Positions 1 to 13,203 of a DNA stretch of 64,000 nt are shown here, piece after piece. The notes under the pieces were generated by a model. It did not search any database and had not been told where the DNA came from. It saw only the letters and a list, made by a program, of their open reading frames with translations. The stretch spans positions 96,001 through 160,000 of the forward strand of contig CAWGPD010000004.1 in NCBI GenBank assembly GCA_963824385.1. Reading direction: 5' to 3'. The stretch comes from an uncultured Nitrososphaerota archaeon (GTDB lineage Archaea; Thermoproteota; Nitrososphaeria; Nitrososphaerales; Nitrosopumilaceae). Numbering within the stretch: the first letter of the stretch is position 1; each line of letters starts with the position of its first letter. The position numbers were made by a program, and so were the translations under genes.

Positions 1-2070
1 CTCAGAGTCCATATTCTGAATTTTTGCCCCATCCACTTTCCAGTCAACTTTAAGGCCGTTCAGAGGTACTTGTTTGTAGGTAGCAGTAATCTTAGCAGAC
101 AGTGGAACATTCGACTCTCCAAAATCAGCTGATTGCATAGTCACATCTGGCGTAATACTAATTACATTAATAACAGATTTTGACAAAGGAATTTCATTTG
201 CAAGAAGTGCAATCTCTGATGCGCCTCCGCTTTTTGCATAAACAGTAAATGTGGTGAAATAGGAACCACTGGGAATGGTTACACTGTCAGGCATTTCAAT
301 AACAGATGGATCGCTTGAAACAAGTTTTATTATCATATCATGATTTGAATATGTTGGCATTTGCTGACTGTCTAACAATTCAACTGAAAATGTATCTTGA
401 ATTCCAGATGTGATTTTTGCCGGATAATCAAACTCTAATGATTCTGGAGTGACCGACGTACCTTCGATTGAAAAGGTTGAAGCAAATTCAGGGGATATAA
501 CTGACAAGTTTTGCAGGCCATCTTTTAGTAATACACCATCGGATATCAAAATAGGTTGATCCTCGTGTATGGACAATGTATCTGTTTGAATAGAGTCAGA
601 TGGTGATACCATCAATGGCGTTTCGCCAGTAGAAAAACTAAGAGCGTTATTATTTGTCAGATAATATGCAATTGGGATTGTTGTATGCGTTAGAACGTTT
701 GCAAGCAATGAGTCGGCCACCAAGGATCTTAAATCGCTTTGAATTGAGCTTATGACAGGAGTTACAGTTTGAGGATTATCAGTTACAACATTAAGTGTAA
801 CAGGATTTGCCGTGTTGCCAACTTGTGCAAACACAAGTGCCTCTTGTGAACCTTGATCCATCTCTACATCAGGTATTGAAACTACAGAGGGATCAGAAGA
901 ATCGATTTGAATTTTAAGATTGTCCTTTGCAAGAAGTATGTTTCCTGCCGGGTCTTGAAGATGAAGTACACCAATCAATTCTTTTTGCCCAGTGGCCAGA
1001 ATTGGAAGTGCATCCATCCTAGCAGACTTTACATCAAGTAAGGTGTTATTGTTCGTACTGGTCAGTAGTACAGGAGGCGAGACTAGATTTCCTGCTGCAT
1101 AAGCAGTTACATTAAAAGTTCCAGTGGTTCCTGCTGTAACTTCCATTGGAACATATGTCCAATACGTTCCTTTTTTTATCACAGATTGTTCACCAATTTG
1201 AAATAATGGACTCTCATAGCTGGTGTTAATTTCACCAACACCGCTAGCGTTTGTAATTTGTACTTTTAAAGGAATATCATTTTTTGCAAGAACCGGATTT
1301 CCTGACGCATCATGCAGTTGTATAATGGCATATGCGGATGACTCTGCATACGCATTAATCGTTTGAGGGTAAACATAAAGTTGTACTGTATTTTGGGAAC
1401 TAATTTGATTAACAGTAATTGATGTTGAAACAGATTCCATTGATGAAGAAGAGGCTGTGATTTGTGCAGTTCCCGCATTATTTACTGTAACTTGACCAAC
1501 GGAATAATATTCTCCTTTCTTTATCACTAGAACGTTATCTACCGGGGTTACAATGTTGGCATCAGACGTAGATATCGAGATGGACATATCAGATGTCACA
1601 GGAGTTGGAACGTTGTTATCGTTAATGGTTTCTACAGCAATGTAACCAGATTTTGGGCCATTAGTTGCATATGTAGAAGGAGTTACTTTTATTACTAATT
1701 TTGTTGCAATGTTAGGATCAGTGTAAACCGTTAGATCAAACTCATTTGAAGAAAAACCCGGTGCCGCAAGTGCAATTTTAACATCACCAGCAGCAAAAGC
1801 CTTTATTTTTATATTAGATATCATATGAGTTTGGTCTTGTGCAATTCCCATTATTTGCACTATGGACGGATCAGATGATGTTGCAACCAAGTTGTCAACT
1901 GGAATATCATCCGTTTGTGAATAAACCTCTATAACCCCTTCTGTATTTTCTACAATCTTTCCTGGAATTATCTTCATTTCAAGAGCTGCTGGAGTTGAGA
2001 CATCAGCATATGCTGGAAAAACTAAAGATGTCATTAACAGCAACACAAGCAGATATCTCAAATTATCCAT
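1..2070 (-). CDS. Large secreted/surface protein with repeated Ig-like beta domains (3' end outside window)
   Basis: Manual translation from ATG at 2070: MDNLRYLLVLLLMTSLVFPAYADVSTPAALEMKIIPGK (signal peptide, AYA-D cleavage). Recurrent 'SSDPS' segments. Absent from the ORF track, consistent with no stop before the window edge. Confidence 0.8.
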   Translation of the reverse strand, partial: MDNLRYLLVLLLMTSLVFPAYADVSTPAALEMKIIPGKIVENTEGVIEVYSQTDDIPVDNLVATSSDPSIVQIMGIAQDQTHMISNIKIKAFAAGDVKIALAAPGFSSNEFDLTVYTDPNIATKLVIKVTPSTYATNGPKSGYIAVETINDNNVPTPVTSDMSISISTSDANIVTPVDNVLVIKKGEYYSVGQVTVNNAGTAQITASSSSMESVSTSITVNQISSQNTVQLYVYPQTINAYAESSAYAIIQLHDASGNPVLAKNDIPLKVQITNASGVGEINTSYESPLFQIGEQSVIKKGTYWTYVPMEVTAGTTGTFNVTAYAAGNLVSPPVLLTSTNNNTLLDVKSARMDALPILATGQKELIGVLHLQDPAGNILLAKDNLKIQIDSSDPSVVSIPDVEMDQGSQEALVFAQVGNTANPVTLNVVTDNPQTVTPVISSIQSDLRSLVADSLLANVLTHTTIPIAYYLTNNNALSFSTGETPLMVSPSDSIQTDTLSIHEDQPILISDGVLLKDGLQNLSVISPEFASTFSIEGTSVTPESLEFDYPAKITSGIQDTFSVELLDSQQMPTYSNHDMIIKLVSSDPSVIEMPDSVTIPSGSYFTTFTVYAKSGGASEIALLANEIPLSKSVINVISITPDVTMQSADFGESNVPLSAKITATYKQVPLNGLKVDWKVDGAKIQNMDSE

Positions 2071-2121
2071 ATCTGACTTTAAATACAATATAAGATCAGG
2101 TATGACTTTTTTTATGACATA

Positions 2122-3591
2122 CTATGATGATGAGGGCTTGGACAGTATAGAACCAATATCAATTACATGCAATTGTATCATGCCAATTGAGAGCAGAGTA
2201 ATTATAGTAAGCAACATGGAAAATACAAATCCTCCAGAATAAGCCCCTTTAGTTATTTTACCAAGAAAAAGACCTGCAAGCCAGGCTTGAGCTACAACAG
2301 CTATTGATACTACCTCAAGTAATGAACTTGATTGTCCCGATGTTTCAGTATTATTATTTACAATATTTTTCCCTTTGTCAATTTCAGAAAAAGAATCTAT
2401 TGTAAGCAGTGTAGTAAAACCAGTAATAATTATCAGCATAAAACCAACCATCACATATGGTTGTAACATATCACGTTTATTTTTTGTAATATTTCGAATT
2501 TTTTCACTTGCATCAGTCAGAGAGTCAAGTGTATTTACATTTCCCCCTCCTGAAGATATTATTTCAAACAATATTCTAAAACTTACTAATACTTGGAAAT
2601 TTTTGATTTCTTTTTCAAGTGTTTCAAAAATATTGAATAGCGGTATGCCCCATTCAAGTTTGTTTGCAATGGTGTTTGCCACAATGTTAAATGATTTGAA
2701 GTCTTTTCTTTTGCATGCATGAATTATGCATTTTTCTGGTCCCATCCCAGCCTTTCTTGCTTCCGTAATATCTCGTAAGATTTGAGGTGTTGCCTCTTCA
2801 GCATGAATATTTCTGGTATAGATTTTTTTAAATTTCATAGTAGGCCATATAGATGCAATAACTAAAGATATGCCCAAAATGTATGGATTGGCGTGCATGT
2901 TAGAAAAAACTCCAGATATAATCAGAATTATGCCTACCAAAACAGGTGGCAATGCAAACTTTAGTATTTTTTTTACTTCAAGTTCTGGAATGTTAGAATA
3001 ATTCATTTTTTGCACCATTTTCATAAATCCAATAGAGACTATTGGAGAAAAGAACAATAGGGCATAAGGCGGTTGTGAAGGAGTATTATCACTTGAACCG
3101 CTAAGTGGGTTTGACCCGATTGCTGCTATGAGTATAAAAACAGCCAGTATGACTATTTGCATTGTAAGCCATCCGTGAACAACACCACTTAGTTTTTCAA
3201 CTGATTGTTTTTCAGCATTTTCAAGCCTGTCGTATGAACCAGTCATTTTACTTTTCAAGTAATTAACTACATTACCACCACTTTGAATAGCAGAAACATA
3301 TCCACTCAGAAATTCACCTAATGCTTTTGAAGAAGGCCTATCCTTTGCTTGGTCTAATGCGCTAAGCGGGTCTATTCCAAGCAAATCAATTCTTTTGATA
3401 ATCTTAATTATTTCTCCTTGAATAATAGGCAAGAGATTGATCTCTTTTATTTTCTGTAGCATTGTATAAGGACCAAGTCCACTGGACGCAAGTAAAGACA
3501 TTATAGTAATAAAATATGGTAACTCTCTATCGATCTTTTTGTTCTGTTTTTTTTCGTAATCTGCCTGATCAAGTTTTTTTAGTGAAATCAT
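2122..3591 (-). CDS. Type IV pilus/archaellum membrane platform protein (TadC/FlaJ, T2SS F family)
   Basis: Two T2SSF-like repeats (ELPYFITIMSLLASSG; PQILRDITEARKAG), multiple TM helices, directly downstream of the pilus ATPase. Confidence 0.9.
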   Translation of the reverse strand: MISLKKLDQADYEKKQNKKIDRELPYFITIMSLLASSGLGPYTMLQKIKEINLLPIIQGEIIKIIKRIDLLGIDPLSALDQAKDRPSSKALGEFLSGYVSAIQSGGNVVNYLKSKMTGSYDRLENAEKQSVEKLSGVVHGWLTMQIVILAVFILIAAIGSNPLSGSSDNTPSQPPYALLFFSPIVSIGFMKMVQKMNYSNIPELEVKKILKFALPPVLVGIILIISGVFSNMHANPYILGISLVIASIWPTMKFKKIYTRNIHAEEATPQILRDITEARKAGMGPEKCIIHACKRKDFKSFNIVANTIANKLEWGIPLFNIFETLEKEIKNFQVLVSFRILFEIISSGGGNVNTLDSLTDASEKIRNITKNKRDMLQPYVMVGFMLIIITGFTTLLTIDSFSEIDKGKNIVNNNTETSGQSSSLLEVVSIAVVAQAWLAGLFLGKITKGAYSGGFVFSMLLTIITLLSIGMIQLHVIDIGSILSKPSSS

Positions 3592-5143
3592 TTAGGCATT
3601 CCCTAATTCTATTTTTTGCAATAATGATTCTGGATCTCGGTAATATTTCCCGACTACTTCGGCCACTTTTTTATAATTTCGAATATCATTTTCAAGCATC
3701 CATTTAAGAATCATGATCCTTTTTTCATGTTCCTCAAGTAGTTCATTGAAATCACGACCTGACGCATCTGCCATTTTTTTAAACAGATTGCTATCTTTGA
3801 GATTGTCATCAAAATTATCAGTTTTTGGATTCCACAGAAAATGCTGGATACGAAGAGTTGGAAGATATAATTTCAGATACGGCAATAGCTCTTCTACTGC
3901 TTTGCCCCGTAGAATTTTCCTTTACTCTTTTTATGACAACTGCGCAATTCATTAGAGAGATATATGCAGGCGGAATGTCCATTGGCTTTTGTTGTAGTCT
4001 TTTTATTGCAGATTCAAGACCATCTGCGTGCATGGTACACAATCCACCGTGACCTGTGGCCATGGCTTGAAACATCACATATGCTTCAGAACCTCTAATT
4101 TCACCCACGACAATATAGTCAGGCCTATGTCGTACTCCTGCTTTTATCAAATCATACATTCCTATTTCACCTTCACCGCTCAAGCCAAATCCACTTCTTG
4201 AGACTAGAGTAAACCAGTTTTCATGATTGATATTAATTTCAGCAACATCTTCTACTGAGAAAATTTTGTAATCAGGGTGAACAAGACCTGTAATTGCATT
4301 AAGAATTGTTGTCTTTCCACTACCAGTTGAGCCTATAATTATAAAAGATTGTTTGGCTTCTACCAGCATCCAAAGATATGCTGCTATTGAAATGCTTATA
4401 GTTCCAAATTTTATCAAATCAATAACAGTATAAGGATCTTCTCGGAATTTTCTTATTGTAAAGCTTGTTCCTTTTGGAGTTACTTCCTTTTGATATAAAA
4501 CAGATATTCTATGATTTCCTTGTAGTGCCAAATCAGATATTGGAAAAGCCGTGCTTATGTGTTTTCCAGCTCTGAACACAATTCTAGAAACAAATGAATT
4601 CAATTGTTCATTTGATGCATACTGGATATTTGTTGGGATGCTGTCATAATTTCTATGCCATATGAAAATTGGTTTATCAGTTCCACTACAGCTTACATCT
4701 TCAATGTTTACATCATGCATTAGTGGATCAATTAGACCAAATCCTACGATATCACGTTTCAAATAATATTTCACCTTCTCCATGCTACTCATACTAGAGT
4801 GATTCAGAAACATCTTCTCGTTTTCCTTAAGAATTGCATTTAGATGACCTTCAAAATTTTGATTGCCGCCAGAGGTGGATGGAGATTCTAAACTTTCTTC
4901 AATGAGTTTGTAAAGCGTTTGGAAGATCAGCGTATCTTCTCGGTTTAGACGTAATTCATCTACAAAATAGAGATATGTGGACTTTTCAGCATTATACAAG
5001 ATATTTGCATAACTAAAGGGAGGCAGTAATGGATACTTTTTTACAATTTCATAACCGGAAGGAATTTGACTTTGGCCTTCATCCATGATTTGACTTGCCA
5101 GAAAAGTTTCAATTTCATTGGATTTATTTGATTTATTTTTCAT
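3592..5143 (-). CDS. Type II/IV secretion-system ATPase (FlaI/TadA/VirB11 family); one frameshift near 3840
   Basis: Walker A GSTGSGKTT, RHRPDYIVVGEIRG, ATGHGGLCTMHA. The C-terminus (LWNPKTDNF...) continues in ORF 3592-3885 after removing one base. Confidence 0.92.
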
Positions 5144-5193: not shown

Positions 5194-5893
5194 CTATGAT
5201 TTGCTTGCAACAGTAACTGATTGCGGTGCGCCCACATTACCAGCATAGATTGCTACACTGCTTTGTGAACCAGCATCAACGGTACTCAAAATTCCGTTTG
5301 GAACTTCAAAGTATACTACTGCCCTATCACCTGGCTTCAAAGAAATTGGACCAGATGCTTGTGTGAAGCACATTGTTGGATTTGCACTTGCTAGACCAAA
5401 CTCATTGATATAAAATTGAGTTGGACTATTACTAACACACCCAGCTGGTGCAGCCGCAGCATAACTTTGCATCATACCGGATGGTACTAATGGATTAGTA
5501 ACACGGTAAGTATGATGTCGCAGTTCCAGTAAAGTTTAGCTGAGCCTGGAAGTTTGCAACAGTGACTTGAGTAGGATTACTGTCATAATACCAGCTTGCA
5601 AATGGTATTTGACTACCACGTACACTAATCTGGTCTACAGACAATATCTTGTCTCCACTATTTCTAATCTCTGCGGCACCCCACACATATGTTGGCGATA
5701 CACCAGTTGTAGCGTTTACCCACATCTGTGTACCTTGAGCCGTTACGCCGGATGATTGTGCACCTGTCTGGAATAGGCTTGTACCATATAGTACAACACC
5801 TGTTCCAAGAACAACTGACGCAACCAAGATGATCAGCGTAGTAAGCACGGCACTGATTGCCTTTCTGTTCTTTGTTCTAAGGAACATATTCAT
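5194..5893 (-). CDS. Type IV pilin, probable major subunit; one frameshift near 5505
   Basis: Class III signal KNRKA|ISAVLTTLIILVASVVLG. ORFs 5495-5926 and 5194-5475 join by a single indel. Confidence 0.8.
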
Positions 5894-5950
5894 TATTAGC
5901 AAGTATGATAGTGGAGAATATCTCACCTAGCATGTAATTTTGACTTACAC

Positions 5951-7502
5951 CTAGTCTGATGAGACCGTCTTGTATGCAGTAATAAATTTGGCCACAAGTT
6001 GTCCAAGATTGGAGGAGCCACGCATACTATTCCTAAAACGCTTTGAGGTGGATTTGGATACACCTATGGCAATTAATGAGACCCCTGATGCGTCAAGTTT
6101 TTTGGCAATTTTAGCAAGATGTTGATGTATTCTTTCATAACCCGATGGATGCCCATCTGTAATAATAAAAATATATTTTCGTTCTCGTGAGTCGTCTGAT
6201 AACATCCTACGAGCTAATTCTATTGCATCGGGTAATAACGACAACCCATTATTTTCTAACGAACCAATTCGTGCTTGCACTTCACGGCCATATTTTTCTT
6301 TAAAATCTTTTAGGATTTGTAAATTGTTATCAAAACTAAATAAAGCCCAAGCATCGGATTTTCCTGTCAGATCATTTGTTGCTTCAGCGATACAAACCGT
6401 AAATTCTTTAATTTGTTGAAATCGCAAACTCATACTTGCGCTATTATCTATCAAAATTACCCATGCGGCTTCAACTCGTTTTATTTCGTCTCGTTCAAAA
6501 ACATCAACGTATTGTCCTTCTGATGCAATAGACTGTATTGCCATTTGCATGTTAAGGTAACCCACCTCACCAATTTTTGGTTCGTCAAAAAGGTTTGTTA
6601 CCATTTGTATTTGTTGACGAATCCGCCTCAATAATGGAGTCACTTTTTCTTTGATTTGCAAAAAATCATGGAAATTTCCTTGAGGAATGGTAATTGCACC
6701 AAAATTAAGATCTTTCAAATTCTTTTCGTATCGTCTGAGCAATTTTGATTTGAATTGCTCATCTTCTAACCATAATTCATCAAGTCGTATAGCATTTTCA
6801 TTGAATGACCCACGTGGTTCAAAATCAGGACTATGTTGCTCAGTCTTCAATATTTGTCTCACATCATGTCTTTCATAGTAGGGAGGAACATCTTCGGGAA
6901 GTAATTCCCTGTTTTTATAAAGCAAGGTTGCAAACAAGAGCGCGTCATCCAGGGTATTCATCTCATGTGTTCTCATCTTTGTAATTTTTTCCTCATTAGA
7001 TAATCCGAAAAAGTTCAAATCGGCATCCCGAGAATTAAAAGAATTTTTTTGAGTTTTGGACATAGATTTGAGATTAATGTTTTTCATGTTTTCCCATACA
7101 TCAGAATCAGTATGAGAAATGTATCTTTCAACAGAAATATCCTCGATACAGTCTATCACACGTAAACAGACATCTTCTGTTTTTGATTTCTTCCAAGAAT
7201 CATATATCGAATATCTTGAGACACACGCATGAGCTGCAAGGTGATAGATTGTAGCTAAAAACAAGCACCAAAGATTTTGCCTACCATTTGGGGTGTGATC
7301 AAATAGTATGCCTTCAAACAGATATTTGTTGTCCTGTTTTCTTGGTAGAGGAATAATAATTTCTAGTTCAGAATTACATATTATCACTGGAAACAAGATC
7401 TTTTTTGAAAAAACAAGATTCAGACTGCCTGGTTTTATCTGAGAAAAATTGTAAAAAATATCTTCAGCTGAATTCTAAAAAACTTGATCCTTTTTCTTTC
7501 AT
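5951..7502 (-). CDS. VWA-domain protein (NorD/CbbO-like MoxR partner); frameshift near 7480
   Basis: MIDAS motif ILIDNSASM and IITDGHP; N-terminal HLAAH...IED region. ATG at 7502 overlaps the MoxR stop (TGATG). Confidence 0.85.
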
Positions 7503-8512
7503 CAGATTCCAGCTATTTTACAAATTATCTTTCTTACCATCCCTTGGACTTCGACATCATCACTAGTTAGTGAAATTATTGTTTCTTCTGCAGCGTCTTT
7601 TAGTGAAGCGCCATCAGAAATCAGTAATGCCCAGTTTAATAGATCACCTACAGATGGACCATAAGGAAGATCACCTGATTTGTATTGTTTTCGTAGTTCG
7701 GCCCCAACTCTGACTATTATTTCTGCATCTTGTCTGCTCAAGCCATTGGTTTTTTTAATTAAAAGATCAATCTCTTTTTCATCAATCTTTGAGCCCACAC
7801 TCATATAGTCAAAGTTTAACCAGACACTCATTCTCCTTCGCATTGCAGCGTTTATGGGTTTAGTGCCCGCAAATTCAGAAGATACCGGATTCATGCTGAT
7901 TATCAAAAAAGCATCTTTATGTCGTTGAATTATCTCATTATCTTTTTCTGTTAAAACCATATGACCTCGTTGATCCAAAATAGGATTAAGTCTTGTAGCA
8001 ATATCTTGTTTCATCATATTTGCCTCATCAAGATACAATATTCCGCCATATCTGCTCCAAGATGTTATTAATCCATCAATCCAATTTTCTTTTCCTAGTC
8101 CAACATATCTTCCAAAAAGATCAAAAACAGATGTTTGTAAACCACAGTTTATCTCCCATATTGGAAGACCGGCAAGCTCTGCCACTAGATAAACAATATG
8201 GGTTTTCCCGGTACCACTTGGTCCAATTAATGCACATTGTTTAAAAAATGATAAGGCTCTTGCAATTCTTTCTACATATTTTTCGCCATTATCAAGATAT
8301 GCAGGAGTATCTCTTGGTATGAGTTCAGATATCTCAGAGGAAAATGAAAATTTTTCTGGGTCAAGATATTTTTTCAGGTCATAATTTTTTGATAGGGCAT
8401 GTGTACTTTTTTTTAACGTGGAGACATGAATATTAAGAGTAAAATTCTCGTCATGGATTTTGGAATTTATTACTTCTTTCATCCTTTGATCAGGAGGATT
8501 TTTGATACTCAT
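7502..8512 (-). CDS. MoxR-family AAA+ ATPase (CbbQ/NirQ/NorQ/GvpN type)
   Basis: Walker A GPSGTGKT, Walker B ILYLDEAN, SMNP and AMRRR motifs. Confidence 0.9.
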   Translation of the reverse strand: MSIKNPPDQRMKEVINSKIHDENFTLNIHVSTLKKSTHALSKNYDLKKYLDPEKFSFSSEISELIPRDTPAYLDNGEKYVERIARALSFFKQCALIGPSGTGKTHIVYLVAELAGLPIWEINCGLQTSVFDLFGRYVGLGKENWIDGLITSWSRYGGILYLDEANMMKQDIATRLNPILDQRGHMVLTEKDNEIIQRHKDAFLIISMNPVSSEFAGTKPINAAMRRRMSVWLNFDYMSVGSKIDEKEIDLLIKKTNGLSRQDAEIIVRVGAELRKQYKSGDLPYGPSVGDLLNWALLISDGASLKDAAEETIISLTSDDVEVQGMVRKIICKIAGI

Positions 8513-8604: not shown

Positions 8605-9111
8605 ATGAATTTAAGAATAGAGACAAACTCACTTGCATTTTCAAAATTAAAAAATGAACACGGTTTTGTTAAATACAATATTGAAGCGTCACTTGACGAA
8701 GTAGAAAACAGAGATTCCGAAGTTGTGTTAAAATTCAAGCTTATCCTTTTGTCAAATCCTACAAATGCCAAAATTTCAGTAGATGGTTTGGCAACACTTT
8801 ATGGAGACCAGGTTGAAATATCAAAGCAACTGAGTCCAGACGAAAAAAACATTCCAATAATTTTGAATTTAATATATCAAGAGATCTTTCCGTTGTTTTT
8901 TATCATGTCAAAGAGTATGCAGATACCATGCCCAGCATATAGGCTCTCACAGATGTCATATGCATCACAGACAGAAAAGATTGTCTCCGAATCTTCACAT
9001 GAATCAAATAATACCAACGTAGTTGGGTTTTCTAGTCAAAATGAATTGCATGAACAAGTCGAGATTGAGCCACCATCAGACCAAAAGCAAATCATCGAAC
9101 AGCAAATGTAA
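8605..9111 (+). CDS. Hypothetical protein
   Basis: 168-aa ORF filling the gap, divergent from MoxR. Confidence 0.7.
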   Translation: MNLRIETNSLAFSKLKNEHGFVKYNIEASLDEVENRDSEVVLKFKLILLSNPTNAKISVDGLATLYGDQVEISKQLSPDEKNIPIILNLIYQEIFPLFFIMSKSMQIPCPAYRLSQMSYASQTEKIVSESSHESNNTNVVGFSSQNELHEQVEIEPPSDQKQIIEQQM

Positions 9112-9235
9112 GCGTATTTGACATACGCAAATATCAATAATAGAACTTTTTGATAAAACATCAGATGTGTAATAGACGACTTTGCATAATTTTAAAATTC
9201 TCTTTTCATATTGACGGAAATTTTTAAAATCAGTT

Positions 9236-10921
9236 CTATCCTTTTTGAATCTCTACTAAAATCATCGGTGTGGGAATAGATGCCAATATTGTAGCACCGG
9301 ATGGATATGTAACCGGTAATGAACCATAAGTATAGCTTACTGTATAAGCAGTCCCAAATCCTTTTGCACCCATTGTGTTGACATATCCTAACACTGGCGG
9401 AATTGCATCTACAGTATTTGCTCTAAAAGTCGGTTGAGTTGTTGCTGCAGTACCACAAGTCCAAGCTTCCCAATAGAGTCCTTTAGTCAAGGTAATGGGA
9501 GTTCCAAATGTCAAAGTTTTAACTGATGCAGTAGTTGTAAATGTACCAACATCACTTCCAGTAACTAATGTTTGAGGATAGACATTGCCATTATCTCGAT
9601 AAATTCCTATATGACATGTTGTTGTTGTAGGATTTGCAGCAGTAGAAATTTCTGCCTGAATCTCATTAATTGTTAGTGTATGAGGAACTACCCAAGGAGT
9701 TGTTCTCAAAGTAGACGGTGTTGAAATAAGTATACTTGAATTAGTGGGATGTATCGCATTACCATACCATGCTGTTGTTGACCCTCTCATGAAATAATCT
9801 ACTGGTTCTGATGGATCAAATCCGATGGTTTTCCAGTTTGAACCGTCACTTATGACCTTGACTAGTTGATCTTGATGCGTGAGATTCATTGAACCAGAGG
9901 GAGAATAATACCCATCAATTGTTTGCGAAGCAGTGGTAAGGATTCTCACCATGTTTCCAGCAGAAACAGAACCGTCTCGTATAGTAAAAGTTTTGCCAGT
10001 GTGTCCAACTGAGTTTGGCAAAGTTACAATCGTAGTTGCAGATGTGGTATTGAAATTAACAGTATCTTCTGTATATAACAAAGTATGACTAGCAGAATAC
10101 GTGCTATATGCTTCCACAATTCCAGTAGTTGTTGAACCTAGTACAACATTTTGCGAGACAGTGTTATAGAGATAACCATTTTGAAGTGATGCTTGGAAAT
10201 TAGCCGTATATCCATTAGAGCCATTAATGTTATAATTCCACTGGAAAAATGTTTCAGCCCCATTGTTCAAAATTGGGTAAGAGGATGGAGTAGGGCCTGA
10301 AATCAGAGTAGCTTTGCCAACACCTGTCACATTACTAACTACCATATTTGGCACAATATTGGTAAGTGCTCCGCCATTTGTCATGTTGTTTGTTACGCCA
10401 AGAAGTAGAGTAGCGATAAAATTATTGGACCCAGTAGATGGTAACGCAAATAATTGTAAATATACTGGTGCTTGACTTGCAGAATTTACAAAAAACTCCT
10501 TGACGTTTCCACGCATAGTAACTAGTTTAAGGTCATATCCTTGAGTCGGCTTGGCATAAAGTGGGAGGCTTTGCCCTATCTGTGAAAGAGAATTTCCAGG
10601 GTATACAATTTGGTTAACAGCATATTTGGAAGTGCCCCAAGTGATATCGGTTTTATTCTCAACCCATAGTCTGTCAATAGTAATTGGAATGCTTCCTGAG
10701 TTTTGTACTGTAATATTGAATTTATTATTAGCTATAGTTACCTGAGTTATTGAAAATGTTTCATGGTTTGCATCTGCCTGGGCTTGACTTTTTGTTACAA
10801 ACGCACCAGTAAAATTATTCAGTAAATTCATATCATAATTAACAAAGGTTACAGCAGTTGTAAAAATTATAATAAAAAAAACAGCTCCAACTACAGTGCT
10901 TATGCCCCGTCTATTGTTCAT
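9236..10921 (-). CDS. Minor pilin/adhesin with large C-terminal extension
   Basis: Class III signal MNNRRG|ISTVVGAVFFIII, pilin-type LVTMRGN motif, Thr-rich beta domains. Confidence 0.8.
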   Translation of the reverse strand: MNNRRGISTVVGAVFFIIIFTTAVTFVNYDMNLLNNFTGAFVTKSQAQADANHETFSITQVTIANNKFNITVQNSGSIPITIDRLWVENKTDITWGTSKYAVNQIVYPGNSLSQIGQSLPLYAKPTQGYDLKLVTMRGNVKEFFVNSASQAPVYLQLFALPSTGSNNFIATLLLGVTNNMTNGGALTNIVPNMVVSNVTGVGKATLISGPTPSSYPILNNGAETFFQWNYNINGSNGYTANFQASLQNGYLYNTVSQNVVLGSTTTGIVEAYSTYSASHTLLYTEDTVNFNTTSATTIVTLPNSVGHTGKTFTIRDGSVSAGNMVRILTTASQTIDGYYSPSGSMNLTHQDQLVKVISDGSNWKTIGFDPSEPVDYFMRGSTTAWYGNAIHPTNSSILISTPSTLRTTPWVVPHTLTINEIQAEISTAANPTTTTCHIGIYRDNGNVYPQTLVTGSDVGTFTTTASVKTLTFGTPITLTKGLYWEAWTCGTAATTQPTFRANTVDAIPPVLGYVNTMGAKGFGTAYTVSYTYGSLPVTYPSGATILASIPTPMILVEIQKG

Positions 10922-11158
10922 AATATTCAGCCTTACATGATGAACATGATAATTCATAGAAATTATAATCTAAAGATATTTCATCATACCTCATATGATA
11001 AAAATAGTTTTTATCTTCGATAAAGGATTCTGGATGTCACATAAAATAATTACACGTTTAATGACTTCGATTTTAAACTATAAAAATTTATGAAAAAATA
11101 ATATTATGTTTTTACCGTGATACGTGTTAACCATTTATCTAAAAAGATGAAAAATGGA

Positions 11159-12601
11159 TCAATTGCGGAAATTTGTAAATGTGCATGTAGTTACTCCTTT
11201 AGGAACTGATACGGTGACTTCAGTTGTATTGGGCTGAGTATATCCGTTATTACAGCTAATACTCTGGAGGGTCCACCCAGGCGTAGGAGTTTCACCTACA
11301 GTATATTTTCCAGGATCTACAAAGAACACTCCAGAGCTTCCTGTTCCAGGGTTTCCAAGTTTTATAGATGTTGTAACTTGAATTTCAGAACTTGTCGTAT
11401 GACGTTCTGCATAAAAAAAGTCAAAAGGATACACATTTCCCAGGGTTATCCCAAGTTGGCTAGCTTGTGAATCCAAATTTATCGTACCTGCCGCTCCTGA
11501 ATGCACTCCTCCTAAATCTAAAGCAAGATGTTTGTTGATGAAGACCCAGACATCATCATCTCCCCAGAAATTAAAAGTCTCACCACCTTGATAGGTAAAT
11601 GAACTGTGTATCTCATATGTAAATCCAAAATTATGCCAGTTACCATTTGCATCCTGTCCACTGTTACCTAATAATTGATTATCAATTGGAAAGAACGACA
11701 TGTTGGAATATGACCATGTTTGCGGATTGGTATTTTGTGCAATCAATGTGATATTCAATTGTTTATGCATGTTAATAGTAGAATTATCATGAAACCACTG
11801 GTAAAACCATCTATACCCGTTGTTAAATGCAGAGGTGGTTTGATTGTTGTATACAGGTGTGCTATCATTACCAAGTATAGGCATGACAATGCCTGGAATT
11901 ACTCCAAACGGACAGGGACATACTTTTTCAAAATCAGGATCTGCGTAATGAGGAGCTGCTGAACCATTAACATCATGAATTGTTCCAGTTAGGACCAAAT
12001 TTCCATTTGCGTCAATATTGGCATTATTCTGGCTACCAGAAGTTGAGATGGAAAAACTACCCAAATCACCATAATAGCTAAAGTTGCCATCTGCTTGCCT
12101 TGCCACCTTATTTATTATCAACTGCCCATCAGCAGGGGTTCCAAGATGATGTGTAAAAATTGAGCCACGGTTAGTAATTAATGAGATATCAAGTGGGTCT
12201 CCTGCCCAATTATAATTTAGCAATTTGGAAAAAGTTGCACCAGGAGGAACCGCGGTTGAGGGAATTCTCAAATCTAATGGGTTTATTCCTTTAATTGCTA
12301 TCTCGGTAACATTGAGACCGTCAATACCCGTGTTAATAAAAGTGACATTGAGTTGCTTTTGTGCAGAATTATACCATTCATTTTGTGGAGTGATTGATTC
12401 TTTAATTTTATTGATGTTAGTAGAATAAGTATCATCTATGATACTTTCATTTTTATTTAGATTGTCTTTGGCCCATGAAACACCAATGATACCTATTAGT
12501 GAAAGCCCCGCAAGCAGAATCACTCCACTAATTACTGTTGACACTCCTCTTTTGTATAGATTGAAACAACTAAACGGATCATGCCTATTCCTTTTTCTCA
12601 T
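11159..12601 (-). CDS. Minor pilin/adhesin with fibro-slime (PA14-related) domain
   Basis: KRG|VSTVISGVILL signal. Fibro-slime signature HNFGFTYEIH...FWGDDDVWVFINKHLALDLGGVH...FYAERHT. Confidence 0.85.
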   Translation of the reverse strand: MRKRNRHDPFSCFNLYKRGVSTVISGVILLAGLSLIGIIGVSWAKDNLNKNESIIDDTYSTNINKIKESITPQNEWYNSAQKQLNVTFINTGIDGLNVTEIAIKGINPLDLRIPSTAVPPGATFSKLLNYNWAGDPLDISLITNRGSIFTHHLGTPADGQLIINKVARQADGNFSYYGDLGSFSISTSGSQNNANIDANGNLVLTGTIHDVNGSAAPHYADPDFEKVCPCPFGVIPGIVMPILGNDSTPVYNNQTTSAFNNGYRWFYQWFHDNSTINMHKQLNITLIAQNTNPQTWSYSNMSFFPIDNQLLGNSGQDANGNWHNFGFTYEIHSSFTYQGGETFNFWGDDDVWVFINKHLALDLGGVHSGAAGTINLDSQASQLGITLGNVYPFDFFYAERHTTSSEIQVTTSIKLGNPGTGSSGVFFVDPGKYTVGETPTPGWTLQSISCNNGYTQPNTTEVTVSVPKGVTTCTFTNFRN

Positions 12602-12714: not shown

Positions 12715-13203
12715 TCATGGAGATACATCATCCGTAATGACTGAACCTCGTGCAGTAGTTACTATTATGCTCAATGGAATTTTACTTGTCCAGCCAAAAG
12801 ATATCTTTGTAGAATTTGTTTGTTGAGCAGGGATGTTTCCATGTGTAATAGGAACATCTAACACATATGTAGAATTCTCAATTTTGATATCTGTAATAGT
12901 TATACCTGTAGAGCCAACGTTATACAGTGTAACATTAACGAATTTTGATGGAGTGATGCCAAACCAGGCATTTTCCATTACCAAATTTTCAGAAAACTGA
13001 TTTACATTTGTGGTATAAAGCGCAGTTGTAACTGATTTGGATATTGAAAAGCTACCGCTAGACCACATGACTACCGCTGAGCCAAGAATAACAGTGGTTA
13101 CAAGAAGTATCATTCCAGTAACTATCGAACTTAGTGCTCTATGACTATGAAAATTCCTCATTCGTAAATTTTTGATCATTTGGCTGCTAATATTGAGTGG
13201 CAT
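12715..13203 (-). CDS. Minor type IV pilin
   Basis: HRA|LSSIVTGMILLVTTVILG signal; C-terminal VTTARGS motif shared with neighbouring pilins. True start may be the ATG near 13161. Confidence 0.8.
   Translation of the reverse strand: MPLNISSQMIKNLRMRNFHSHRALSSIVTGMILLVTTVILGSAVVMWSSGSFSISKSVTTALYTTNVNQFSENLVMENAWFGITPSKFVNVTLYNVGSTGITITDIKIENSTYVLDVPITHGNIPAQQTNSTKISFGWTSKIPLSIIVTTARGSVITDDVSP

Follow-up and report, generated by a model that had tools for sequence, protein, structure and literature searches.

Why does an archaeal pilin end in domains that look viral, and from where could such an ending be acquired? The question is raised by one gene in the window, by which we mean the whole 64,000-nucleotide stretch of DNA, from an ammonia-oxidising archaeon of the Nitrosopumilaceae, that was analysed. 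The gene encodes a protein, P0001 (Table 1), that the original prediction had read as a pilin and an Ig-like domain joined to viral receptor-binding domains recruited as a pilus adhesin.

The N-terminus of P0001 has an archaeal pilin fold. A class III signal peptide (RRG/ISTVVGAVFFIIIF) is followed by a hydrophobic helix (residues 4-52), and structure comparison matches this module to the Pyrobaculum type IV pilin 8fk7 (Z 12.3, rmsd 3.4, 131 residues) and to 6w8u (Z 8.9). A phmmer search of P0001 against the PDB gave a single match, again 8fk7 (E 0.015). Residues ~150-263 resemble Ig-like sandwiches (Z 9-11). The pilin and the Ig-like domain were therefore predicted correctly, and the motifs quoted in support all occur in the gene; the stretch TTIVTLP...SDGSNW corresponds to residues 296-363 (about 10036-9833), inside the predicted interval of 10105-9830. 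Residues 1-263 were modelled from 79 sequences (pLDDT 83), and residues 264-561, hereafter the tip, were modelled as two domains from 114 sequences (pLDDT 93). Folded modules added C-terminally to a pilin give P0001 the architecture of a modular pilin.

The named homologues of P0001 are Nitrosotalea proteins, and Ca. Nitrosotalea bavarica has a collinear orthologue that is 90% identical, in the tip likewise 90%. An in-frame ATG lies upstream of the ORF at 10957. Pfam returned no family match for P0001 or for the tip, PHROGs none for the entire protein or for the Ig domain, and the sole NCBIfam match to P0001, ArlF, fell below the cutoff. The GC content of the tip domains (38.5-39.7%) carries no foreign signal when set against that of the Ig domain (38.3%). 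A metatranscriptome contig of 182 bases matches 9278-9459 exactly at depth 3, which falls short of proving transcription; in an expression check, two runs contained just 7% of the words.

The gene belongs to a pilus locus with an assembly ATPase, a platform protein, four class III pilins counting P0001, and TrmB and KaiC-type genes. Neighbours of the locus, recognised by eye, are presumably purK/purE-like and biotin-type genes. An A24 prepilin peptidase gene lies outside the window and ends some 0.7 kb ahead of its first position. Archaeal type IV pilus loci are accompanied by MoxR AAA/vWA pairs, according to the accessible part of PMC4858521. The locus is syntenic in genomes G010 and G218, so P0001 is not a provirus gene; we rejected a provirus or mobile-element origin of the gene on the basis of this synteny, the conserved chromosomal location and the absence of viral or integrase neighbours. 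P0001 is probably a minor pilin of a chromosomal type IV pilus, located at the pilus tip.

Two other proteins of the locus deserve mention. In more distant loci, the PA14 pilin neighbour has a short version without the PA14/fibro-slime and SpaA-like domains. After pilC, a large secreted Ig-repeat-like protein (1-2088, minus strand) runs beyond the window edge and is possibly an S-layer-like or adhesin component of the pilus locus.

Table 1. Features of the pilus locus in the window and modules of P0001.
Feature	Position	Strand	Evidence
PilC/TadC platform protein	2122..3591	-	
PilB-type assembly ATPase, frameshift-split in the assembly	3592..5143	-	
Probable major pilin, frameshift-split in the assembly	5194..5926	-	
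MoxR/CbbQ-type AAA ATPase and vWA partner genes	5951..8512	-	
Conserved 168-aa gene, the downstream synteny anchor	8605..9111	+	
Downstream intergenic stretch exchanged with the tip; homology returns near 9010-9112	9112..9235		blastn
Modular type IV pilin gene, 561 aa (P0001), intact	9236..10921	-	ORF; collinear orthologue
CBM-like beta-sandwich, A4 gp25 relative, residues 368-561; probable binding head	9239..9820	-	
XD1-type module (T4 gp9/gp10, CBA120 TSP4), residues 264-367; probable trimer spacer	9821..10132	-	
Ig-like domain (putative stalk), residues 151-263, kept together with the pilin	10133..10471	-	
Tip-swap breakpoint, residue ~260; DNA homology to other-tip orthologues ends	10139..10145		blastn
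Class III signal peptide (RRG/ISTVVG) and archaeal pilin module, residues 1-150	10472..10921	-	
Modular pilin upstream of P0001, PA14/fibro-slime and SpaA-like domains	11159..12601	-	
Small pilin, weakly UpsA/UpsB-like	12715..13203	-	

The two halves of the protein have separate histories. Across 111 homologues the pilin and Ig-like domain are conserved and the remainder is variable. The conserved pair is present in 33 of the 61 genus genomes searched. Of 77 proteins with the pair, among them a few that appear as both a protein and a locus record, 76 can be assigned to one of five tip classes that are unrelated to one another (25, 24, 22, 3 and 2 members). Even at a carrier identity of at least 75%, the 11 genus loci returned were divided between an XD1+CBM tip (5/11) and a ~140-aa tip (6/11), and the same PA14 pilin adjoins all 11. 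Homology in blastn stops at 10139 with G010, at 10144 with G188 and at 10145 with G200, and DNA similarity is unbroken across the junction with three same-tip loci. The carriers of P0009 and P0010 are 98% identical, their tips 38%. The C-terminus is thus not inherited vertically with the rest of the gene, and the domain swapping anticipated among orthologues has a sharp breakpoint.

Phylogenetic tests agree. A carrier tree thinned to nine rows for each of the two large tip classes requires 16 changes of tip (minimum 9). The XD1+CBM pilins are rejected as a single clade on the tip tree (AU p 0.00018) and on the carrier tree (p 1.4e-54). The carrier tree likewise rejects monophyly for each subtype of the ~140-aa tip (p 0.00018 and 5e-33). 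Monophyly of five close XD1+CBM carriers is not rejected (p 0.24), so we claim no second transfer into P0004. The pilin and Ig-like domain are a constant carrier; what follows residue ~260 is a cassette with a history of repeated replacement. The source genome (86% complete) contains no second copy of the tip, no recombinase family was detected among the 13 locus proteins scanned, and positions 9000-10400 have short chance-level repeats and no sfx-like recombination repeats. Replacement most likely would occur by ordinary recombination with foreign DNA rather than by a programmed switch. Several genomes of the genus hold two or three paralogous pilin+Ig loci; paralogues in L066-L082, at 37-49% identity, have LamG-type tips or tips of ~170-200 aa.

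Both domains of the tip have viral proteins as their best structural neighbours, and not cellular ones only. The XD1 module matches the tailspike of Acinetobacter phage Solidus (Z 12.8), residues 79-181 of CBA120 TSP4 (Z 12.4, rmsd 2.0, 97 aligned), a KP1 baseplate protein (Z 10.5) and the Pa223 capsid spike (Z 9.7). It matches PHROG 972 (tail fibre proximal subunit) at E 0.0076 only. The cellular matches, CpaA (6o38, Z 8.8) and StcE (Z 7.4), are those tabulated in the accessible part of PMC8825819, which gives T4 gp9/gp10, CpaA (6O38) and StcE as homologues of the TSP4 XD1 and describes that domain as one that appears to act as a spacer. A phage tail-fibre repeat had been predicted here; the phage-like fold holds, and the repeat does not, the module being a single-copy XD1 spacer. 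The same spacer assignment, with its cellular relatives CpaA and StcE, speaks against XD1 as a recruited receptor-binding domain.

The closest solved structure to the CBM-like domain is 9jwb_Z (Z 20.3, rmsd 3.8, 197 aligned), which a profile of 114 tip homologues also finds at E 9.5e-14, making it a homologue at the sequence level. We infer that this chain is cyanophage A4 gp25, since it is present as a single copy in the asymmetric unit. The accessible part of PMC12002296 describes A4 gp25 as a trimeric capsid cement protein whose CBM 'might' bind host receptors; the CBM label is based on structural resemblance, and the receptor role is a proposal. The next matches are the Bxb1 tail tip (Z 14.0) and then the cellular Cwp84 lectin-like domain (Z 11.2), and the domain also matches PHROG 25864 (unknown function; E 4e-5). 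A resemblance of the last ~190 residues to phage minor tail proteins was thus right as to a viral beta-sandwich, with a capsid cement protein as the closest solved relative instead of a tail protein. Of the language-model neighbours of the CBM, 77-96% are viral, as are most of those of XD1 (scores 0.93-0.94 for both domains); this is consistent with the predicted viral recruitment, and the phage likeness of the tip exceeds chance. A viral fold library gave 414 matches at E<=0.001, which we set aside for questions of provenance because it has no cellular counterpart. Arthrobacter phage Zucker gp26 (L003:3060-5450) is a glycoside hydrolase with this CBM-like domain at its end, in keeping with a glycan-binding role.

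Three copies of the tip model as a homotrimer with a score of 0.89 against 0.00 for the best of three controls; in the calibration, which used two copies where this job used three, 20 of 30 solved pairs scored as high, as did 1 of 23 single chains. The runs had at least 80% contact agreement and pLDDT of at least 89. The score may stem from likeness to solved trimeric phage proteins. On this modelling, the tip is predicted to form a homotrimer.

Where do such tips occur? The family has 1,902 representatives at E<=0.001, and the 23 metagenome loci with tip homologues include several tailed phages as judged by their neighbours (L015, L022, L025); in L022 the homologue is flanked by Dit and a minor tail gene. 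The CBMs of such phage-context contigs group apart in the tree (97/93), and the nearest relatives of the tip appear to be fibres of archaeal-virus and host-chromosomal type. Bacteriophage fibres, the source implied by the original prediction, are more distant.

Among viruses, a fibre with both modules belongs to NTT1, of the family Nipumfusiviridae (PMC12451623, accessible part), whose type comprises spindle-shaped viruses of ammonia-oxidising archaea. Its ORF60 (L002:3247-6285, BK067791), unannotated in GenBank, is a large signal-peptide fibre with XD1 and a CBM that is interrupted by a ~170-aa insertion; identity to the window's tip is only 30-31%. It lies five ORFs after ORF65 (89 aa, two helices), a putative capsid protein. 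NTT1 is the only one of the five Nipumfusiviridae genomes examined with XD1/CBM. NTM1 ORF56 (L097:18674-20326), also unannotated in GenBank, is a fibre with a related N-terminus and no XD1/CBM, so the viral fibre appears from these sequences to vary its tip too; the three other genomes have neither the ORF60-type N-terminus nor XD1/CBM. Searched with HMMs of the other tip classes, the five genomes gave nothing but the shaft repeat. ORF60 and ORF56 are candidate fibre or receptor-binding proteins of terrestrial Nipumfusiviridae. Contig L013 is viral because its other two genes are of Nipumfusiviridae type (E 2e-51 and 2e-26). L008 is only probably viral, as its ATPase has weak Nipumfusiviridae matches (E 1e-4 and 3e-5) and none among annotated phages. 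An ORF60-like fibre, P0116, was seen on contigs of 56.7 and 56.1 kb, against 27-38 kb for known Nipumfusiviridae; these contigs are possibly a new virus of ammonia-oxidising archaea.

Host chromosomes also encode a family of secreted tail-fibre-like proteins (L085:7613-9235 in G010, L086:6653-8539 in G058, L011:3178-4833, L039:1510-3075). The family has a conserved N-terminus and swappable tips and is located in a variable island of surface-protein genes close to cdvB; P0074 and P0123, for example, have the N-terminus in common and tips of different lineages. The family looks like an archaeal equivalent of the MAT fibres. The gene is absent from its cdvB-side site in the source genome.

These chromosomal genes are the basis of the strongest competing explanation, in which tips pass to pilins from host to host out of secreted fibre genes, viruses are recipients or bystanders, and the viral look reflects an ancient and widespread domain family. 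XD1+CBM fibre genes do sit amid housekeeping genes, mostly beside cdvB (G010, G058, contig L011). Our tip trees, unrooted LG+G4 trees of hand-picked rows (48, 32 and 51) out of 235 hits, place pilin-borne XD1+CBM tips in at least three lineages, and two sister groups in them are chromosomal: the tip of pilin P0013 with P0125 (100/99), and CBM-only pilin tips, a fourth lineage, with a gene of G245 (100/100). Chromosomal genes in L040 and L048 terminate in the ~140-aa tip as well. That tip has one weak phage match (E 1e-3), and P0029 has none. The N-termini of P0046-P0051, close relatives in the tip, resemble chromosomal genes, and XD1/CBM is confined to one of the five Nipumfusiviridae genomes examined. 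Against host shuffling stand the viral language-model neighbours of both domains and the interleaving in the tree of virus-type and chromosomal-type tips, which change type eight times in ten virus-type rows and nine times in ten chromosomal-type rows. Exchange with viruses in some direction must therefore have happened. In the trees, the viral L013 fibre and the tip of pilin P0028 pair as sisters (100/97; 98/80 in a second tree), and the tips of pilins P0029 and P0037 start with the ~45-aa shaft repeat of ORF60-like proteins. Host shuffling as a full account seems plausible to us, although we lean slightly against it; it differs from the explanation we prefer in donor and direction only.

The window's own tip groups with P0030, P0046, P0034, P0074 and P0112 (99/98). 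Its nearest relative is P0030, with 68% identity in the CBM and 47% in XD1. The CBM is 82% identical between virus-type P0112 and chromosomal-type P0034, types that for these two and P0046 were assigned from N-terminal similarity and not from contigs. A viral contig collection searched for the tip, P0030 and P0112 gave no close relative, only 26-34% matches; a genome contig search gave six loci, none with a context for P0030; and P0030 matched 5 of 251 order-level genomes, none closely except the source genome. Sharing of modules between viruses and hosts is well supported by sequence comparison. Since the trees are unrooted and several labels come from N-terminal similarity, they speak for a shared pool and repeated exchange, not for a donor, and this suggests that hosts and viruses take sticky tips from a single pool. 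The tip modules are likely viral in ultimate origin; that a virus was the immediate donor of this tip falls somewhat short of likely.

In the mechanism we favour, and consider likely overall, P0001 sits at the pilus tip as a trimer, and its CBM-like head, renewed by recombination from a virus-host fibre pool, determines the target of the pilus. Prepilin peptidase would cut the protein after RRG, the pilin helix would enter the filament, the Ig domain would serve as a stalk, and three XD1+CBM tips would assemble into a fibre-like trimeric head. The CBM-like domain would bind a surface glycan, either of neighbouring archaeal cells or of soil or biofilm polymers. The tip cassettes occur on two other carriers besides the pilin, the large Nipumfusiviridae-type fibre and the signal-peptide fibre genes in host chromosomal islands. 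It is tempting, if doubtful, to go further and propose that three-way tip exchange between viral fibres, chromosomal secreted fibres and pilins gives the pilus a virus-evolved specificity for archaeal glycans, used in strain-specific recognition or aggregation. If so, pilin tips would also report the receptors of Nipumfusiviridae.

The tip could instead be an assembly cap, or a protein adaptor that anchors a secreted partner in the manner of CofB, for which there is precedent (PMC6048534, accessible part). The main role of A4 gp25 is that of a trimeric capsid cement, and the conserved aromatics of the tip are known as column conservation only. We regard this role as unlikely: five structurally unrelated-looking tip classes and the LamG tips of paralogues interchange, which fits a part that chooses ligands better than a fixed part of an assembly, and the source genome (86% complete) yielded no stand-alone XD1/CBM fibre that could be a partner.

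Archaeal viruses often use pili. Tip turnover might accordingly be an escape from such viruses in which any compatible trimeric domain is tolerated and binding specificity is secondary. Turnover of alleles is rapid even among related ~140-aa tips, as the rejection of both subtypes as clades indicates. We find this quite improbable, because the replacements are repeatedly adhesin-type fibre ends and the accessible parts of the literature cited here name no receptor for Nipumfusiviridae-type viruses.

Finally, a chimeric assembly or a decayed locus, which the split major pilin and PilB might suggest, is extremely improbable and is largely refuted by independent genomes: G169, G290 and G218 have this fusion in intact form, the G169 locus matches the isolate record of Ca. 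N. bavarica in which both genes are unbroken, the ATPase is unbroken in L088 and L090, and frameshifts in unrelated genes (4 of 16 tested loci are split, those of glutamate racemase and, on C2, of a cdvB paralogue among them) make assembly indels the likely cause.

We found no description of this modular pilin and tip family in a literature search of main texts that covered few subscription journals. The archaeal pilus surveys PMC4858521 and PMC13705601 mention predicted adhesins, and their accessible parts describe neither the family nor a viral link ('phage' and 'viral' have no occurrences in that of PMC13705601); the gene may figure among the predicted adhesins of their arCOG tables. The accessible parts of PMC11849493 and PMC6563490 hold nothing further on the novelty of the family, and Ni et al., in the part available, report NYMAG-47 proteins as lacking similarity to SSV19 tail proteins. 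The family gives evidence that modules pass between an appendage of the host and viruses of that host's own group. Its candidate binding heads are soluble and modelled well, and swapped alleles of them occur in nature; this opens to testing both the attachment of soil ammonia oxidisers and the targets of their viruses.

Several known systems share parts of this design. The IncI PilV shufflon has a constant pilin N-terminus and alternative C-terminal adhesin tips. P0001 likewise combines a constant pilin part with alternative tips; unlike in PilV, the variation lies between genomes, and membership was rejected, as the 13 locus proteins and the 86% complete genome have no recombinase, sfx-like repeats or silent cassettes. 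The modular type IV pilins of bacteria, such as PilB and PilC of S. sanguinis (10.1101/2021.01.27.428410), are pilin carriers with grafted modules, some of them lectins, that are presumed to be exposed at the tip. P0001-type modules differ from those of that survey in that they swap between close orthologues and are common to the viruses of the host group; the survey covers bacteria, and 'archaea' and 'phage' have no occurrences in its accessible part.

ETEC CofB and V. cholerae TcpB (PMC6048534, PMC7248040, accessible parts) form homotrimers at the pilus tip and consist of a pilin, a linker and a lectin-like C-terminal domain; P0001 has a comparable build, its trimer being a prediction. They have beta-repeat and H-type lectin folds, both absent among the 50 fold matches listed for the P0001 tip, whereas P0001 has XD1 and a gp25-like CBM, is archaeal and has an interchangeable tip. 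The lectin-like trimer of CofB does not bind GalNAc and anchors a protein instead (PMC6048534). The same folds as in the P0001 tip, both trimeric, are found in A4 gp25 (PDB 9JWB) and in the XD1 of T4 gp9/gp10 and CBA120 TSP4, which are virion components of tailed phages and only 16-22% identical to it. NTT1 ORF60 shares XD1 and the CBM at 30% identity, on a signal-peptide carrier rather than a pilin.

The MAT fibres of Bdellovibrio (PMC10769870, accessible part) are also cellular, phage-fibre-like trimeric adhesins with mosaic tips, one of which binds prey glycans. They begin with a signal peptide and a conserved ~130-aa beta-rich anchor; P0001 begins with a pilin and for this reason was rejected as a MAT. 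The stand-alone Nitrosopumilaceae fibre genes are closer to MATs than P0001 is. By analogy, P0001 would work like the modular pilins, the CofB-type trimeric tips and the MAT fibres, extending the principles of modular pilins and phage-fibre adhesins to archaea.
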